From a virus: a DNA stretch of 38,123 nt. The notes under the pieces were generated by a model, which searched no databases, was not told the origin of the DNA, and saw only the letters and a list, made by a program, of their open reading frames with translations. The position numbers and the translations under genes were made by a program. The stretch is taken from the IMG/VR virus record IMGVR_UViG_3300043036_000143; one strand, written 5' to 3'. Position 1 is the first letter of the stretch. The number at the start of each line of letters is the position of its first letter. Positions 4,460 through 33,203 of this stretch are shown piece by piece.

Positions 4460-5038
4460 ATGCAATTAGAACACAGCACACCTGAATTGTTTACTGCCCT
4501 AGCAAAAATGCAGGGAGAAGTAGAAAACGCCACAAAAGGCTCGCTAAATCCACATTTCAAATCGAAATATGCGGATCTTGCGGAAGTCTTGAACACCGTG
4601 CGCCCAGTATTGGCAGCAAATGGACTATCAATCATACAGTCGCCCTCATTTGACGGTGCTATTTGCCACGTTACCACCACAATCGCCCACAGCGGTGGAG
4701 GGTATATCTTCGGCACTATGTCCTGTGTCCCTGCGAAAATGGACGGGCAGGGCGTAGGAGCGGCAACAACCTACCTTCGACGCTATTCGCTCGCCGCAGT
4801 CTGTGGAGTTGCCCAGGAGGACGATGACGGACAATCGGCAGCGCATAATCGCCCCGCAGTCTATCCGCTCATTTCCAGTGGTGAAGCTGCCAGAATTCGC
4901 GAAAACATCGAAGCTCTTGCTATCGACGAACCAGCATTCCTGAAACATTACGGAGTTACGGCAGTCGCACAGCTAACCACTGACAAAATCGCCAGCATCG
5001 ATAAAGCATTTGCAATCAAAGCTAAAGCAAAACCATGA
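4460..5038 (+). CDS. erf: ERF-family single-strand annealing protein
   Basis: ALAKMQGEVENATKGSLNPHFKSKYADLAEVLNTVRPVLAANGLS and TTYLRRYSLAAVCGV are typical ERF motifs. The gene is ATGA-coupled to the exonuclease gene. Confidence 0.85.
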   Translation: MQLEHSTPELFTALAKMQGEVENATKGSLNPHFKSKYADLAEVLNTVRPVLAANGLSIIQSPSFDGAICHVTTTIAHSGGGYIFGTMSCVPAKMDGQGVGAATTYLRRYSLAAVCGVAQEDDDGQSAAHNRPAVYPLISSGEAARIRENIEALAIDEPAFLKHYGVTAVAQLTTDKIASIDKAFAIKAKAKP

Positions 5039-5841
5039 AAAACGCAACTATTGAATACAACTTGGGCAGAGCGTATTACTCACGTTCCGCATCGCCGACG
5101 AACCTGTCAGCACCTGTCAGCAAATCACTATTATGGGATTTCAACCAATCACCCTACAAATGGCGACACAGCACAGGCAAAGAGTCGACCCGCGCGATGG
5201 ATTTAGGAACGCTGATTCATGCCGCGATCCTAGAACCAAACATTCCGCTTGATGTAATCGCAGCAGTATCGCCATTCTCCGACTTTCGCACTAAAGCCGC
5301 GCAGGAGTGGAGAGACGATGCACGAGCAATGGGCAAGATGATTGCCACAGATGCCGACATTCGCGTTGCTGGAGGGTGTGAAGCGGTCTTTTCCGAAGAC
5401 TATGTGCAACGCTTTGCAGGTAGCTATAAATCCGAGGTGGCAGTTTTTGCCACTATCGGGGCAACTGAGATTAAAGGCATGATTGATCTCGTGCCTGACA
5501 ATCTTGATTTGCTGGTAGACCTCAAAACTACCGCGAAAATCGGGAGTCTTCGGAACATTACCAACACTATCATCGACCGAGGTTATCACTGGCAAGCTGC
5601 GTTATATCTCGATCTGTGGAACGCTGCCACAGAAGAGAAACGCAAACGCTTTGTGATATGCTTTATCGAGGTGGATGCACCGCATGAGTCGGCATGGGTG
5701 GAAGTCTCACCCGAACTGATTGAGGCAGGGCGCATCGGTTACATGAACGCACTTGCGAAATGGCAAGCGTGCTGTGCTACGGACACATGGCCGCGCCAGC
5801 ATGAGGGGATTACCACTATCGAGAAACCCGCATACCTATAA
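5035..5841 (+). CDS. PD-(D/E)xK (RecB/Cas4-like) recombination exonuclease
   Basis: Motifs DLGTLIHAAILEP, GMIDLV, DLKTT (D/ExK) and YHWQAALY (QxxxY) are present. It sits immediately downstream of erf. Confidence 0.75.
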   Translation: MKNATIEYNLGRAYYSRSASPTNLSAPVSKSLLWDFNQSPYKWRHSTGKESTRAMDLGTLIHAAILEPNIPLDVIAAVSPFSDFRTKAAQEWRDDARAMGKMIATDADIRVAGGCEAVFSEDYVQRFAGSYKSEVAVFATIGATEIKGMIDLVPDNLDLLVDLKTTAKIGSLRNITNTIIDRGYHWQAALYLDLWNAATEEKRKRFVICFIEVDAPHESAWVEVSPELIEAGRIGYMNALAKWQACCATDTWPRQHEGITTIEKPAYL

Positions 5842-12793: not shown

Positions 12794-13083
12794 AAAAGAG
12801 AGCTAAGAGAGCGAGCGATGAAGGGTTCAGTATGATTTGCGGCAGACCGAGACACAAGCCGTGGGAGCAAAAGGCTACGATTGTCCTGCGCTTGTCACAG
12901 GAAACATATCAGCGTATCAGGCGGTTATCGTCGCACAGGAGGTGCAGCGTAAGCCAGGCGGCAGAGTTACTCATGCGCACGGAGGAATCTGAGAGGATCG
13001 AGCCGACAATGCCGATTGACTACTCATTCCTAGAAAAGAAAGGCAACAGCTACACAGTATTAGACATTCTTAATTTACCATGA
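12790..13083 (+). CDS. Possible ribbon-helix-helix protein
   Basis: ATIVLRLSQETYQRIRRLSSHRRCSVSQAAELLM fits a strand-helix-helix pattern. The gene is ATGA-coupled on both sides. Confidence 0.55.
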   Translation: MKKRAKRASDEGFSMICGRPRHKPWEQKATIVLRLSQETYQRIRRLSSHRRCSVSQAAELLMRTEESERIEPTMPIDYSFLEKKGNSYTVLDILNLP

Positions 13084-13664
13084 ACACACTAAGAGGATTT
13101 CCCAAACGATACGAGGATGCCCCGCCAGCGACAGGTGACGGATGGTTGGCAAACTATGCCAAAGCACTCGCCACAACCGATTCTGGGGGCATTACGATCC
13201 TTTACGGAGGATATGGCACAGGCAAGACACGCATGGCTTGGGAGGTGGCTAGGGCGCATAAGTCCAAGCGTCCAACAATCAGTAATGGTGGCATTGGATG
13301 GACGACAAGCACGAAGAAACGCCCGATGGTTTACACCACAGCGGTGAACTTGTTCTCAACGATCAAATCCACTTATACTTCTGGATCTGGCAAATCAGAA
13401 AAGGAAGTTGTATCGGATTACTGCGAAGCTGCACTGCTGGTGATAGATGAAGTCCAGGAGCGTGGGGAAACACAATACGAGGATAGACAGCTAACCGCTA
13501 TCATTGATGCGAGATACGCCGCAGATATGCCGACGATCCTGATTTCCAACTATACATGGGAGAGATTAGCATCTACGCTATCTCCAGCTGTGATTGATCG
13601 GATCGAGGAGAACGGGGCGAAACTACTATTCAACTGGGAATCATTTAGAACCAAAACAAAATGA
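13080..13664 (+). CDS. DnaC/IstB-like AAA+ ATPase (helicase loader)
   Basis: Walker A GGYGTGKT and Walker B LLVIDEV are present, with sensor-like PTILISNY. The size and context fit a phage replication module. Confidence 0.8.
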   Translation: MNTLRGFPKRYEDAPPATGDGWLANYAKALATTDSGGITILYGGYGTGKTRMAWEVARAHKSKRPTISNGGIGWTTSTKKRPMVYTTAVNLFSTIKSTYTSGSGKSEKEVVSDYCEAALLVIDEVQERGETQYEDRQLTAIIDARYAADMPTILISNYTWERLASTLSPAVIDRIEENGAKLLFNWESFRTKTK

Positions 13665-13861
13665 ATACACTACCAAATGACGTTGCCCGATGCAAGGGTG
13701 TGGGATTCGATGAGGACGGAACATGGGACTGGCGCGAAGGATGCGAGACATGCCTGCGCAGGACAGCACCGAGAAATGGAGTGCATTTTTTTATTGATCC
13801 GCCCGAAATCGTCGCTTTCGAGTGCGAATACCTTATTGAACCAACCAAGATAAAACCATGA
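13661..13861 (+). CDS. Small Cys-rich protein
   Basis: 66-aa ORF with RCKG...C..C.RR, ATGA-coupled. Confidence 0.65.
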   Translation: MNTLPNDVARCKGVGFDEDGTWDWREGCETCLRRTAPRNGVHFFIDPPEIVAFECEYLIEPTKIKP

Positions 13862-14109
13862 AATACAAAGAACGAATCACACAAATGACTATAACACAAG
13901 TTGATGAACCCCTGCTTTCAGAGACGGCGACAATAATTACTATTGAAGACGATGGGGTAGGTGAATATCTTTCGATCTTCCAACCAACAGGAAGCGGAAA
14001 AGACGCAATCAATATTGATCCCGATGAATGGGTGGTAATGAGATTAACTATTGATCGAATGTTTGCAGATATTAAAGAAAATGAAAACAATGAACACACA
14101 ACTAAATGA
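13858..14109 (+). CDS. Hypothetical acidic protein
   Basis: 83-aa ORF. Its TGA (14107-09) overlaps the ATG at 14106 of the +1-frame ORF. Confidence 0.65.
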   Translation: MKYKERITQMTITQVDEPLLSETATIITIEDDGVGEYLSIFQPTGSGKDAINIDPDEWVVMRLTIDRMFADIKENENNEHTTK

Positions 14110-14980
14110 GCTACACTTATTTGCAGGAGCAGGGGGAGGCATCCTTGGCGGGATGCTTTGCGGACATACCACAGTATGTGCTGTCGAGATTGAACCTTAT
14201 TGCCGAAAAGTCTTACTCCAAAGACAGCGAGACGGAATCTTGCCAAAGTTCCCAATCTGGGATGATGTGCGAACCTTTGACGGCAGACCATGGAGAGGAA
14301 AAGTTGACGTTATTTGTGGAGGATTCCCATGCCAAGACATTAGTTGCGCAGGAAAAGGAGCAGGAATTGAAGGGGAAAGAAGCAGTATGTGGAAGTACAT
14401 GGCGAGAATCATCGGTGAAGTTCGACCTAGATACGCTTTCGTGGAAAACTCACCGATGCTTGTGGGAAGAGGACTTAGCACCGTCCTCGCTGATCTTGCC
14501 GAAATGGGGTATGATGCAAAGTGGGGAATTGTGGGAGCGCATCACGTCTCCGCTCCACACAGACGAGATAGAATCTGGATTCTTGCTACCTACTCCAACG
14601 TGCGCCGATGCAACGATGGGAGCGATTCTGAACGACAATACGAAGCTAATTATGCTCAAGTCGGGCAAACTGCGGAAGATCAGCAATCAGGGAGTATCTG
14701 GCAGCATTGGACTAGCAAGAACGGTTGCTATGTATCCAACCCCATCAGCGAACGAGGATGCAGCAGGGACTCCAAATGGCAAGATGCAGAAGATGCTAGG
14801 GAACTCACCACTAATTCGGGGGACAACACCAGAAGAGTGGAATGGTGGGACTCTGAACCCAACGTGGGTCGAGTGGCTAATGGGGTGGCCTCTAGAGTGG
14901 ACAGACTTAAAGCCATTGGCAATGGGCAAGTATCAATCTGCGCAGCAAAAGCCTGGGAAATACTTTCGGAAATGGCTTGA
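14090..14980 (+). CDS. dcm: DNA (cytosine-5)-methyltransferase
   Basis: Frame A carries motif I LFAGAGGG, motif IV GGFPCQDIS (Cys codon 14330-32), motif VI FVENSPML, motif VIII APHRRDRIWILA and the C-terminal EPNVGRVANGVASRVDRLKAIGNGQV (motif X). Start is ATG 14090 (alternatives 14081 and 14051). Confidence 0.9.
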   Translation: MNTQLNELHLFAGAGGGILGGMLCGHTTVCAVEIEPYCRKVLLQRQRDGILPKFPIWDDVRTFDGRPWRGKVDVICGGFPCQDISCAGKGAGIEGERSSMWKYMARIIGEVRPRYAFVENSPMLVGRGLSTVLADLAEMGYDAKWGIVGAHHVSAPHRRDRIWILATYSNVRRCNDGSDSERQYEANYAQVGQTAEDQQSGSIWQHWTSKNGCYVSNPISERGCSRDSKWQDAEDARELTTNSGDNTRRVEWWDSEPNVGRVANGVASRVDRLKAIGNGQVSICAAKAWEILSEMA

Positions 14981-14993
14981 CTCTTTTGGTTGA
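14106..14993 (+). CDS. 295-codon ORF fully overlapping dcm in the +1 frame (candidate overprinted gene or frameshift product)
   Basis: No stop codon for 888 nt in the alternative frame. The ATG forms an ATGA junction with the upstream gene, as do the five preceding junctions. Motifs SWKT, LPKWGMMQSGELWE, LLPTPTCAD, MYPTPSANED and LNPTWVEWLMGWPLEWTD are recalled from phage/ICE proteins. Confidence 0.55.
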   Translation: MSYTYLQEQGEASLAGCFADIPQYVLSRLNLIAEKSYSKDSETESCQSSQSGMMCEPLTADHGEEKLTLFVEDSHAKTLVAQEKEQELKGKEAVCGSTWRESSVKFDLDTLSWKTHRCLWEEDLAPSSLILPKWGMMQSGELWERITSPLHTDEIESGFLLPTPTCADATMGAILNDNTKLIMLKSGKLRKISNQGVSGSIGLARTVAMYPTPSANEDAAGTPNGKMQKMLGNSPLIRGTTPEEWNGGTLNPTWVEWLMGWPLEWTDLKPLAMGKYQSAQQKPGKYFRKWLDSFG

Positions 14994-15010: not shown

Positions 15011-15382
15011 ATGACTTGTTCCAAACAAAAAAGCAGAGAGAGATACAAAAAATGGTATGAAGCAAACAAAGAAAAAGCTAGAGCAGACAAAGCAGCAAAT
15101 ATGCGTAGATACAGAAAAGAAAATCCAGAAAAGCATCGCGAGCAATCAAGGACTGCAAAAAAATTGTTGAGAGAAAAACTTAGAGAAATCTATGGGATTA
15201 CTTGCGTTTTATGTGGTTTTGCTGATTTACGAGCGTTAACATTGGATCACGTTTTGAAAAATGGATCAATTGAAAGAGCTGAACTAGGAGAGCGAGGAGT
15301 TTATTTGCGAGCATTAAAGCCAGAGCATAAACACGAATACAGATGCCTTTGCATGAATTGCCAATTTATAGTAAGATCATAA
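15011..15382 (+). CDS. HNH-type endonuclease
   Basis: CVLCG...LTLDHV..NG...CLCMNCQ gives CxxC...DH...N...CxxC. The N-terminal half is basic and repetitive. Confidence 0.65.
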   Translation: MTCSKQKSRERYKKWYEANKEKARADKAANMRRYRKENPEKHREQSRTAKKLLREKLREIYGITCVLCGFADLRALTLDHVLKNGSIERAELGERGVYLRALKPEHKHEYRCLCMNCQFIVRS

Positions 15383-16511: not shown

Positions 16512-17030
16512 TCAGATTGTAAAGCGGATGCGTGAGCGGATCTTGGAAAGGTGCCGAGATTTCAGATAAACCCCACCTCCCTCTCTCGATCCTGCTGCGT
16601 CAGTGTTTCCTTCAGCTACTTTGACGTTGCCATCATCATCAGGAGATGATACAGCAATGCCGATATGGGAGAACGTAAAGACTACGATGTCGCCAGGGAG
16701 AATGTCACCACCATGCGGTTTCTTCGTATTAGTCGTCCTATCCTGTTCAAGTGACCAGTTCTCAAAGTCCCATGCGCCAGCGGTGCGAGGACGCTTAAAT
16801 GTCTTGGTCTGTTTGACTCCAGCGGATGCCATAGCTTCCCGCACTACCCAGCAAACGAAAGCAGCGCACCATGCCCATCCTTTCTTGGGGTTAAGCCATG
16901 TCGCCGCCTTGTATTGGTCAACTCGCTCGCCACAGTTCGTATTGGCAATCTCCCGAACGCCGACTTCCGCCTTGGCGATGCGAATGATTTCCTTCACGAA
17001 TGTAGTCATAGCTTCTTGATGATTTGCCAT
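16512..17030 (-). CDS. CHAP/NlpC-P60-type cysteine peptidase endolysin
   Basis: GWAWCAAFVCWVV (catalytic Cys context) and GDIVVFTFSHIGIAV (His) are present. The gene lies next to small membrane proteins. Confidence 0.75.
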   Translation of the reverse strand: MANHQEAMTTFVKEIIRIAKAEVGVREIANTNCGERVDQYKAATWLNPKKGWAWCAAFVCWVVREAMASAGVKQTKTFKRPRTAGAWDFENWSLEQDRTTNTKKPHGGDILPGDIVVFTFSHIGIAVSSPDDDGNVKVAEGNTDAAGSREGGGVYLKSRHLSKIRSRIRFTI

Positions 17031-31634: not shown

Positions 31635-33203
31635 TTATTTTTTCTGTGTGGAATATTTCTCTTCAAGAGCTTTTAATGAATCAGCAACTGGAGTGGCTGT
31701 CGGCGCAGGAGTAGCAGCAAGACCAAGAATTTGCTCTCTATACATTTGTTCAACTTGGTCATTTTGTTCTTTTGTTATATCCCCATCTGCAAGAGCTTTT
31801 TCACGCTCGCTTTTAGTTCCATGGATGTAGTCAAAAACTGTTTGCTTAAGTCTTTTTAAGTCATTTTTTAAGGTCGCTTTATCTCCGCCTACATCAAGAA
31901 CACCATACATATTCTCAAGCCTCTTGCCTTCTTTTTCAGTAAGTGAACCAAGCCCAGAAGCACCAGTAGGCGATGCTGCTTTTAATTGTTTCAAGGAACT
32001 CAAAGCAATACTATCTTTTATCGCAGGTAAAATTTGATTTTTCAATTTATACTCCTGCGTTCCAGGTATTGTAGATTTAGCCATGTCAATAAGCGTTCCA
32101 GGACCATATGTTGAAATACTATAATCAATAATTTCTTCAGCTTCATTTGCTTTATCAGTAATGAAATTAGATTGTCTAGTTTCTTCAAATTCAGATGCTC
32201 TTTTTGTTTTGGCTAATGCTTCTGCTTTACCACCAACTCCAGCACCTTGTCTATAAGTTGTGCTTCCATCTGGATTTACTGTAAACTCAGTTCCAGAAGG
32301 TGGTCTAATTGGATAAAATTTACCAGTTAACTCGCTTATTTGTCCAGGAACACCATAAGGAGCTGATTCTTCAGCAGTTGCAATACGAAATGTTTCAACT
32401 TTTTTACCATCTTCTACAGGAATCGCATACGAAGGAACTGAAGCATTTGGTTGCGATCCTTCAAATGGAGGCAATGTAGGCACTTCGCTTTCTACTCCAG
32501 TATTAAGAGGTGGCAACAAACTTGGGTCATTAGTATAAAGATTATCAGCAGGAAGCTCTGAGGCATTAACAATTGCATTAGATTTATTCTGAAGCCCACC
32601 TGTTGCTTGAGAAGCAGGCAAGTTTAATGCAGAAGTAATTCCTGATGCTGTAGTAGGAGTTCCAACAACTGTTCCATCAGGTCTTGTTCTTATGCCTGTT
32701 GCGGGGTCAAAAGAAACTGGCACTTTATACTGCTTGCCATTTATAGTTTCTATAATTTCACCTTGTTGAAAGTTTACGTTTTTGCCACCTGTAGTGTTTC
32801 TTGCATTCATCAATTGATCCTGATCAAATCGACCAAACACGTTAGGAATCATCGCCTTGCCTTCATCCAGCAATGCAGCTTTCTCGATAGGGCTAAGATT
32901 AGGATCATTGTATGATTGCAAGAATGGAGCTAGAGTTTCTTCTACTCCTTTAATTTCATACGATTTACCTAGAGTAATCGCAGCTTCGATAGACTTAGCA
33001 GATGCTTTGTTGTAAGCGTCAACTTTCTTCTGCTCTTTTTTCACTTCACCGTAGTTTTGAATAGCTCCCCCGATACTCTGTCCTAGCCCAGCAATTCCCT
33101 GTGCTTGCATTCTAGCCGCATCAGCGAATCCACCGAAATCTAGTTTGAATGACTCAGGGTTAATTCCTGAACCTAGCATTTGTCCTTTTCCGTAAGCTGC
33201 CAT
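31635..33203 (-). CDS. Internal virion-type protein (522 aa)
   Basis: ORF contiguous with its neighbours. No catalytic motif was recognised. Confidence 0.6.
   Translation of the reverse strand: MAAYGKGQMLGSGINPESFKLDFGGFADAARMQAQGIAGLGQSIGGAIQNYGEVKKEQKKVDAYNKASAKSIEAAITLGKSYEIKGVEETLAPFLQSYNDPNLSPIEKAALLDEGKAMIPNVFGRFDQDQLMNARNTTGGKNVNFQQGEIIETINGKQYKVPVSFDPATGIRTRPDGTVVGTPTTASGITSALNLPASQATGGLQNKSNAIVNASELPADNLYTNDPSLLPPLNTGVESEVPTLPPFEGSQPNASVPSYAIPVEDGKKVETFRIATAEESAPYGVPGQISELTGKFYPIRPPSGTEFTVNPDGSTTYRQGAGVGGKAEALAKTKRASEFEETRQSNFITDKANEAEEIIDYSISTYGPGTLIDMAKSTIPGTQEYKLKNQILPAIKDSIALSSLKQLKAASPTGASGLGSLTEKEGKRLENMYGVLDVGGDKATLKNDLKRLKQTVFDYIHGTKSEREKALADGDITKEQNDQVEQMYREQILGLAATPAPTATPVADSLKALEEKYSTQKK

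Follow-up and report, generated by a model that had tools for sequence, protein, structure and literature searches.

Can one stretch of viral DNA carry two different methyltransferase motifs in two reading frames because it encodes two proteins, or is one of the frames an artefact of annotation? The question is raised by IMG/VR virus record IMGVR_UViG_3300043036_000143, a sequence of 38,123 nucleotides (nt) which is almost the entire length of a metagenomic contig of ~38.4 kb and is called the window here, meaning the whole stretch of DNA that was analysed. An earlier reading of its letters, the original prediction, had noticed that the 80 nt at 14853–14932 encode two motifs familiar from the C-termini of phage Dcm-like proteins in neighbouring frames. 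It offered two explanations: a single gene family might have been annotated in shifted frames as two protein families, or the overlap might be ancient and conserved. We find that these 80 bases are the tail of an overlap of ~890 bases, in which both open reading frames (ORFs) are conserved under selection, and we are highly confident that both frames are functional coding sequence. The locus is probably a gene that codes in both frames for the two polypeptides of a DNA (cytosine-5) methyltransferase (C5-MTase) of the M.EcoHK31I kind.

Two open reading frames over one gene

The two ORFs are referred to as alpha, in frame A, and beta, in frame B, which is frame A+1. Their positions and those of the elements within them are as follows.

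14081–14980, + strand: alpha ORF, frame A, 299 amino acids (aa) from the ATG at 14081
14106–14993, + strand: beta ORF, frame B, 295 aa
14106–14109, + strand: ATGA, in which the start of beta (14106–14108) overlaps the TGA (14107–14109) of an upstream ORF (13858–14109)
14120–14140, + strand: motif I, FAGAGGG, frame A; invariant in alignments A1 and A4
14321–14344, + strand: motif IV, GFPCQDIS, with the catalytic Cys, frame A; invariant in the alignments
14444–14452, + strand: motif VI, ENS, frame A; invariant in the alignment
14499–14516, + strand: PKWGMM, frame B, the best conserved piece of the N-terminal half of beta, on frame A wobble positions
14555–14578, + strand: motif VIII, PHRRDRIW, frame A; its end shares DNA with the lead-in to the first PTP repeat of frame B
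14582–14852, + strand: middle region, with xPTPxAxD repeats of variable number in frame B and an open polar linker in frame A
14583–14600 and 14733–14759, + strand: the frame B repeats LLPTPT and YPTPSANED as they stand in the window
14853–14906, + strand: motif-IX-like element, frame B, LNPTWVEWLMGWPLEWTD; the same DNA in frame A (14855–14905) reads EPNVGRVANGVASRVDR, the pre-X motif
14906–14932, + strand: motif X, LKAIGNGQV, frame A; the same DNA in frame B, from 14907, reads LKPLAMGKYQ, the tail of beta

The shared bases (14106–14980) make up almost all of both ORFs. Beta begins 25 nt past the ATG of alpha and finishes 13 nt past its stop, and frame B is stop-free over the 290 shared codons of the window, with both frames open throughout. 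Alpha could alternatively start at TTG 14051 (ORF 14051–14980, 309 aa) or at ATG 14090.

Alpha consists of C5-MTase motifs I–VIII, an unconserved linker of ~90 polar residues, a pre-X motif and motif X. Motifs I, IV, VI, VIII and X (FAGAGGG, GFPCQDIS, ENS, PHRRDRIW and AIGNGQV) are all on the frame A polypeptide, which has neither motif IX nor a conserved target-recognition region between VIII and X. Beta consists of an N-terminal extension, the xPTPxAxD repeats, the motif-IX-like element and a short tail. Pfam PF00145 matches frame A with 115 bits (cut-off 22) at aa 21–229 of the 309-aa form, a match that spans only positions 4–210 of the 324 in the profile, and phrog_363 matches frame A along its full length (E-value, E, 3e-70). 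Frame B is matched by phrog_1008, ‘DNA methyltransferase’ (E 9e-23). Beta and the longer beta proteins of the L001 type described below have no Pfam or NCBIfam match, even at E 10.

Both frames are open across the family

Relatives were collected as 80 viral loci from IMG/VR, sampled through frame A only, and 79 prophage loci, 159 in total. Frame B is open in 79 of the 80 viral loci, from within a few bases of the frame A start to within ~20 bases of its stop, and both frames are open in ~75 of the 79 prophage loci, which come from Acinetobacter, Pseudomonas, Betaproteobacteria, Verrucomicrobiota, Planctomycetota, Synechococcus, Spirochaetia and others. The control frame, frame C, has a median open run of just 20 codons in the viral loci (20–36 over the samples). 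The original prediction had asked whether both frames are open throughout the family, and this is the case for ~97% of the sampled loci.

Synonymous codons were shuffled to give an expectation for these numbers. In the relatives ~5 stops are expected in frame B when frame A is permuted and ~9.7 in frame A when frame B is permuted; in the window the expectations are 6.2–6.4 and 9.5, respectively, and 0 of 200 or 1000 permutations were stop-free. The expectation for frame B is a conservative one, since the pool from which codons are drawn is depleted to begin with. It was also considered whether the +1 frame is open in any C5-MTase gene, which is ruled out by E. coli dcm, a single-chain control with 14 stops in that frame.

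Searches from either frame recover large numbers of proteins, and the original prediction was right to call both signatures widespread. There are at least 8000 homologues of frame A and 6724 of frame B, many of the latter spanning 97–100% of beta at 45–55% identity, and a profile search with frame B reaches 36,373 clusters at 50% identity, most of which begin at the same Met. Cultured phages with the same layout include Salmonella S9-5, Pseudomonas phPA-G, Acinetobacter ABMM1, Microcystis Mel-JY01 and Vibrio 1.003.O, and the layout extends to two more distant phages, Porphyromonas phage032a and Bacteroides BS-TP4, which share only 31% alpha identity with the window. In S9-5 the gene lies at 32172–32906 of MW722521, and in ABMM1 it is gp60. 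Of the two explanations first offered, the ancient and conserved overlap is supported directly, as both frames are open and under selection in relatives down to ~31% alpha identity.

The frame B product of Bacteroides phage BS-TP4 (L168:976–2094) has a different N-terminal half (..SGRKCYERYG..LLESSQW..RLLFRLVPSERRTEE..LLPTP..), a type common among the ‘hypothetical proteins’ of prophages, many more of which may then represent methyltransferase genes read in their second frame.

Selection acts on each frame, region by region

The catalytic half was compared over 159 codons that are indel-free in 86 loci. Frame A dominates here, with an entropy of 0.60/0.38/1.24 at its codon positions 1/2/3; nevertheless, its 4-fold sites are 0.46 identical where 0.30 would be expected, and this includes codon boxes from which no frame B stop can arise. 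In the frame B element PKWGMM, the Pro and the Gly are each present in 50 of 50 representatives, and the frame A third positions beneath them are fixed as C and G (columns 132 and 135).

The order of the frames is reversed in the middle region, where pairwise identity is 0.21 in frame B, 0.136 in frame A (residues 174–255 of the 299-aa form) and 0.134 in the non-coding frame C control. Frame B is thus the conserved frame, frame A is conserved at the control level, and frame A is open all the same. In longer alpha homologues only the linker is longer, and the added part is the other-frame reading of extra repeats (DVADT is the frame A reading of MWPTP).

In the 80-nt core no codon position behaves like a wobble position (entropy 0.67/0.31/0.60). 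The 4-fold sites are 0.835 identical in frame A (0.28 expected) and 0.55 identical in frame B (0.33 expected). Each frame thus limits silent change in the other, and wobble bases are restricted in both directions: the wobble bases of frame B Val and Thr are limited to A or C, by which a frame A Arg (CGA or AGA) is kept in 47 of 48 and 48 of 48 representatives, and frame A wobbles are fixed at the sites from which frame B draws a Pro, Asp or His (Ala GCC in 45, Gly GGA in 38 and Ala GCA in 39 of the 48).

The doubly conserved C-terminal segment

The two peptides that drew attention to the locus are exact translations of a single stretch, which reads EPNVGRVANGVASRVDRLKAIGNGQV in frame A (14855–14932) and LNPTWVEWLMGWPLEWTDLKPLAMGK in frame B (14853–14930). 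In 48 representatives with less than 85% nucleotide identity, the consensus peptides EPxVGRVAxGVAxRVDRLKAIGNGQVP (frame A) and LNPxWVEWLMGWPxGWTDLKPLExDKF (frame B) are kept at 80–99% per position.

It had been derived from the codons that any sequence encoding EWLMG(F/W)PxxWTD must give, one base upstream, essentially the other signature. The derivation has one small slip, since an aromatic W forces Ala (GCC) after G-V and not Ser or Pro, and since Leu can yield Val besides Ala. The check proposed with it, a search for the other motif in the neighbouring frame, was made in 139 related loci picked by the frame B motif E.[LM]MG[WF]P..W. R[VM][AV].G....[VLM][DE][RG] is present exactly 1 base upstream in 126 of them, and G-N-G/A-Q follows within the next 14 residues of the pre-X frame in 134. 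The pairing of the two motifs is not chance.

A second superimposed pair occurs at 14567–14600, where the tail of motif VIII (RIWILAT here, RIWIVAN in most relatives) lies over the first PTP repeat, and frame B reads GFLLPTP or SGLWPTP.

Start codons and translation signals

Frame A starts with ATG in 67, GTG in 36 and TTG in 19 of the relatives. Most relatives have the arrangement NTG-AATG-AG, with the ATG of beta 4 nt after the start of alpha. This ATG is formed from the Asn codon and the G of the Glu codon of frame A, and the Asn is AAT in 136 of 136 loci and AAC in none. A Shine–Dalgarno (SD)-like 4-mer is found upstream in 92 of 115 NTG-AATG loci, compared with 16 of 115 in a control interval. 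It lies 3–5 nt before the start of alpha and hence 7–9 nt before the ATG of beta, so that the two starts share one SD.

The N-terminus of beta occurs in two versions, MSYTYLQEQGE... in the clade of the window (alpha NELHLFAG) and MSWLFSQALVxEYS... in most others (alpha NELALFAG). They differ only via the wobble choices of frame A, and each is kept within its own clade.

Structure of alpha and the motif IX assignment

In the AlphaFold 2 (AF2) model of alpha, aa 5–173 form a Rossmann domain with a predicted local distance difference test score (pLDDT) of 76–90, the linker at 174–280 has a pLDDT of 25–36, and a helix at 281–299 carries motif X (pLDDT ~80). Alpha has the fold expected of a C5-MTase: Foldseek places M.HhaI and M.HaeIII at the top (E 3e-11) and also finds DNMT1, with E between 3e-11 and 1e-9 over 173 columns.

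The assignment of motif IX to beta was approached through a natural relative in which IX and X share one C-terminus. A phmmer search of this C-terminus against the PDB gave no match. In a single BLASTP comparison with M.HhaI 269–327, LNPDWVEWLMGWP aligned onto LHPRECARVMGYP with E 7e-5, and in this alignment LNPxWVEWLMGWPxxW is set against LHPRECARVMGYPDSY of M.HhaI. The same motif IX register was returned by hhalign, weakly (probability 0.2).

Relatives with the two motifs separated

Two relatives, L001 (an NCBI genome) and L002, have a frame A that closes downstream of motif VIII, and in both of them EWLMGWPxxWT is followed further along frame B by RVxxGxxxRVxRLKAIGNGQVP. Beneath each motif there is a decayed copy of the other frame, as frame A at the 5' copy reads RLGRVAHGVAYWLD... 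and then runs into stops, and ECLTISKTG*TDLKPLVMDRFHSWQQLHG is what the 3' copy gives in the +1 frame. Beta of this type overlaps the entire alpha ORF in the +1 frame, starting 4–7 nt after alpha. The simplest reading is that the doubly coding segment was duplicated with a change of frame and that each copy kept one function. Since the pre-X/X and IX motifs are separated in these genes yet both retained, each is selected in its own right, and because motif X sits on frame B there, frame B is part of the enzyme in L001-type genes.

Such resolved forms, with the IX and pre-X/X motifs in tandem in one frame, are seen at L001:4990–5206 and in the proteins P0048 and P0019. In L001 each copy keeps decayed relics of the other frame, which suggests that the overlap has been partly undone by duplication. 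P0048 and P0019 have, at the protein level, an insert of ~150 aa between the two motifs. In L002 a 153-aa ORF (4824–5285, + strand, frame A+2) lies inside the frame B ORF between IX and X; its match to HNH endonucleases is weak and falls short of the cut-off (PF01844, E 0.006), its N-terminus is zinc-ribbon-like, and its C-terminus (..SATDKCHRWQRWHGIY) resembles a decayed beta tail. A gene for a homing-type endonuclease may have been inserted here, between the halves that were duplicated, in which case three frames would be used in one stretch.

A probable two-polypeptide methyltransferase and its alternatives

If the gene works as M.EcoHK31I does, frame A would yield alpha, with an S-adenosylmethionine-binding and catalytic large domain (motifs I–VIII), a long and probably disordered tether, and a pre-X/X helix that would complete the large domain. 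Frame B would yield beta, consisting of an extension over the catalytic codons, the xPTPxAxD repeats, the motif-IX-like element and the tail, together the putative equivalent of the small domain; the repeats would be the likely target-recognition part. Alpha and beta would be translated from one mRNA and would associate into an active enzyme, as has been found experimentally for M.EcoHK31I. The 80-nt segment would then be motif IX and the tail of beta laid over the pre-X motif and motif X of alpha. The open frames, their conservation, their motifs and the fold of alpha are observations, from which we infer the translation of both polypeptides, the heterodimer, target recognition by the repeats and enzyme activity. 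Indirect evidence that both polypeptides are made and needed comes from the selection on each frame, the conserved start of beta and the shared SD.

Several results count against this picture. When modelled by itself with AF2, beta has a mean pLDDT of 50 with aa 1–100 unstructured, a model that is unusable, and Foldseek finds no structural match for it. A profile of 78 beta sequences against PDB sequences gave only a chance match, to apolipoprotein E (E 0.24), and a fusion of the N-terminal half of A, the repeats and motif IX of B, and motif X of A left the PF00145 match unextended to the C-terminus. Because beta has no Foldseek, PDB-profile or Pfam match, what supports its assignment as a small domain with motif IX is a short alignment at the level of the motif. 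The window lacks the NTG-AATG and SD layout of most relatives, the ATG of alpha being 16–25 nt upstream of that of beta. The shuffle tests and pairwise statistics take no account of phylogeny. Finally, there is a stop in frame A in 4 of the 79 prophage loci (L113, L116, L119 and L158) and in frame B in 1 of the 80 viral loci (L085), which means that one frame can be lost or that these genes are decaying. The downstream motifs of the interrupted frame are intact in all five loci, which could be recent pseudogenes, errors in the assembly of metagenome-assembled genomes, or cases of internal restart. It was considered whether the four prophage loci are of the L001 type, with motif X in frame B, and this was rejected because they have an internal stop with the A-frame motif X intact downstream.

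Some of these results would suit a different explanation, in which beta is a real protein unrelated to methylation, such as a regulator or an anti-defence factor, that was overprinted to save space, and alpha alone is the enzyme. Beta has no recognisable Pfam, NCBIfam or PDB domain and is predicted to be largely disordered, like many overprinted proteins, and alpha keeps motifs I–VIII and X. We nevertheless consider this unlikely, since it does not account for an alpha without motif IX or a conserved variable region, whose linker is conserved no better than a non-coding frame. The best conserved element of beta aligns with motif IX of M.HhaI. In the L001-type genes, moreover, alpha does not extend far beyond motif VIII and it is the frame B protein that carries motif X, and in M.EcoHK31I the product of the other frame supplies motif IX and is required.

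The two frames could also be joined during translation. Programmed frameshifting from frame A (I–VIII) by +1 into frame B (repeats and IX), and then by −1 back into frame A (X), would give an ordinary monomeric C5-MTase, and the order of elements on the DNA (I–VIII, repeats, IX, X) is indeed that of the monomeric enzymes. The first PTP repeat of frame B starts a few codons from motif VIII of frame A, A_AAG (gac tta aag) occurs where IX meets X in the window, and L001 and L002, with frame A stopping soon after motif VIII, would need a single +1 shift. What makes this improbable is the amount of coding sequence that it leaves unexplained, as ~150 codons of frame B that precede the supposed shift site are open and in part conserved, and frame A is open across ~90 unconserved linker codons. 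It likewise leaves unexplained the ATG of beta, kept by AAT in 136 of 136 loci behind a well-spaced SD. A shift at tta-aag would bypass the conserved pre-X motif, which is still selected apart from motif IX in L001-type genes. An X_XXY_YYZ heptamer was not seen at either junction of the window, which were inspected by eye and with no systematic scan for shift signals. Frameshifted genes are typically closed in the zero frame after the shift site and closed in the shifted frame before it, whereas here both frames are open for 290 codons, and in ~97% of relatives.

It is very improbable that only frame A is functional, with frame B open through amino-acid and codon composition or chance and its family an artefact of gene calling. 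In favour of this view, part of the similarity in frame B follows from the conservation of frame A, and frame B identity in the catalytic half of the most distant pairs (0.28–0.34) is close to the null (0.26–0.28). Against it, ~97% of the 159 loci have an open frame B although 5 stops would be expected, and E. coli dcm, the control, has 14 of them in +1. Wobble bases of frame A are fixed at sites on which given frame B residues depend, frame B is better conserved than frame A in the middle region, and its start codon is conserved.

Comparison with known methyltransferases and overlapping genes

The two-polypeptide enzyme that we favour has a studied precedent. In M.EcoHK31I, alpha carries motifs I–VIII, X and what is predicted to be its target-recognition domain (TRD), and beta carries motif IX; beta is encoded in another frame, wholly inside the alpha gene, and both polypeptides are needed for activity (PMC2836561, PMC3404938). 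In M.AquI (CYCGRG) the enzyme is split in the variable region, with motifs I–VIII on alpha and IX–X on beta, and these two are the sole exceptions named among the monomeric C5-MTases (PMC3404938).

Judged by the published description of M.EcoHK31I (E. coli HK31, YGGCCR), the window appears to match its design feature by feature. Alpha of the window has motifs I–VIII and X without IX, its frame A product is ~300 aa long (299–309 aa by start), and the second ORF is in the other frame of the alpha gene (A+1, 14106–14980). M.EcoHK31I alpha is reportedly 309 aa long and its beta 176 aa. The two also differ, as beta of the window has 295 aa and is co-extensive with alpha, and runs 13 nt past the stop of alpha, hence it is not strictly inside the alpha gene. 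The conserved variable-region repeats are on beta in the window, where the variable region of alpha is unconserved, whereas the predicted TRD of M.EcoHK31I is on alpha. The gene of the window is also a phage orphan with no restriction partner visible.

The motif split of M.AquI is found in exactly the same form in L001, L002, P0048 and P0019. In the window, by contrast, motif X remains on alpha, and the L001-type beta overlaps the whole alpha ORF whereas beta of M.AquI is a downstream gene. With the monomeric enzymes (M.HhaI, M.HaeIII and E. coli Dcm) the window shares the fold of the first 173 residues of alpha and the motif order on the DNA, but its motif IX and variable region are in another frame. 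Overprinted same-strand genes of viruses are generally known to show a +1 overlap and predicted disorder where the other frame is conserved, as is seen here; unlike these, the overlap takes up about the whole of both ORFs, the products are seemingly parts of one enzyme, and the last 80 nt carry conserved motifs in both frames at once.

A broader proposal, towards which we lean slightly, is that these genes form a large and old family of orphan cytosine methyltransferases of phages and prophages. Its members would be obligately heterodimeric, with subunit ORFs that overlap over their full length (~230–370 codons, +1) and starts 4 nt apart behind one SD, and the choice of start would set the alpha:beta ratio. 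M.EcoHK31I would be one studied member, and in L001-type genes the overlap would have been partly undone by duplication. No description of the wide family was found in the searchable literature, outside which subscription journals largely lie, so that this is weak evidence; its scale, the full-length overlap and the consequences for annotation appear to be undescribed in that literature.

Annotation and significance

The first of the two explanations originally offered, frame-shifted annotation of one family, is right in that pipelines call either frame on the same genes, and wrong in so far as neither frame is an artefact. On the contig of the window, the Joint Genome Institute (JGI) calls frame B a ‘hypothetical protein’ (P0001) and Logan calls frame A (P0121). 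Pseudomonas phage phPA-G is annotated in frame B and Salmonella phage S9-5 in frame A, and PHROGs splits the two frames into the separate families phrog_1008 and phrog_363. The second subunit is annotated in none of the records examined. Gene callers keep one of the two ORFs, and many records therefore lose the methyltransferase call when frame B is kept as a ‘hypothetical protein’. Cloning or recoding the annotated ORF alone would destroy the second subunit.

The two-polypeptide design, which has been held to be rare, would here be present in tens of thousands of protein clusters, and would extend to phages of Salmonella, Pseudomonas, Acinetobacter, Vibrio, Microcystis, Bacteroides and Porphyromonas. 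A same-strand overlap of 250–370 codons, kept across bacterial phyla and under measurable selection in each frame, would rank among the longest and best-supported pairs in prokaryotic viruses. The overlap is also well suited, as a clean case, to the study of one sequence shared by two proteins, including superimposed motifs and forms resolved by duplication.

Neighbouring genes

Directly downstream of the methyltransferase, a 123-aa ORF (15011–15382, + strand) has a very basic N-terminal half and a C-terminus (CVLCG...DHV...N...CMNCQ) reminiscent of an HNH or zinc-finger nuclease, with no Pfam match at E 0.01. An IstB/DnaC-like ATPase (PF01695, E 7e-9) is encoded at 13080–13664 (+ strand) and a CHAP-domain protein (PF05257, E 2e-7) at 16512–17030 (− strand). 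These neighbouring genes are compatible with a context of phage replication and lysis.

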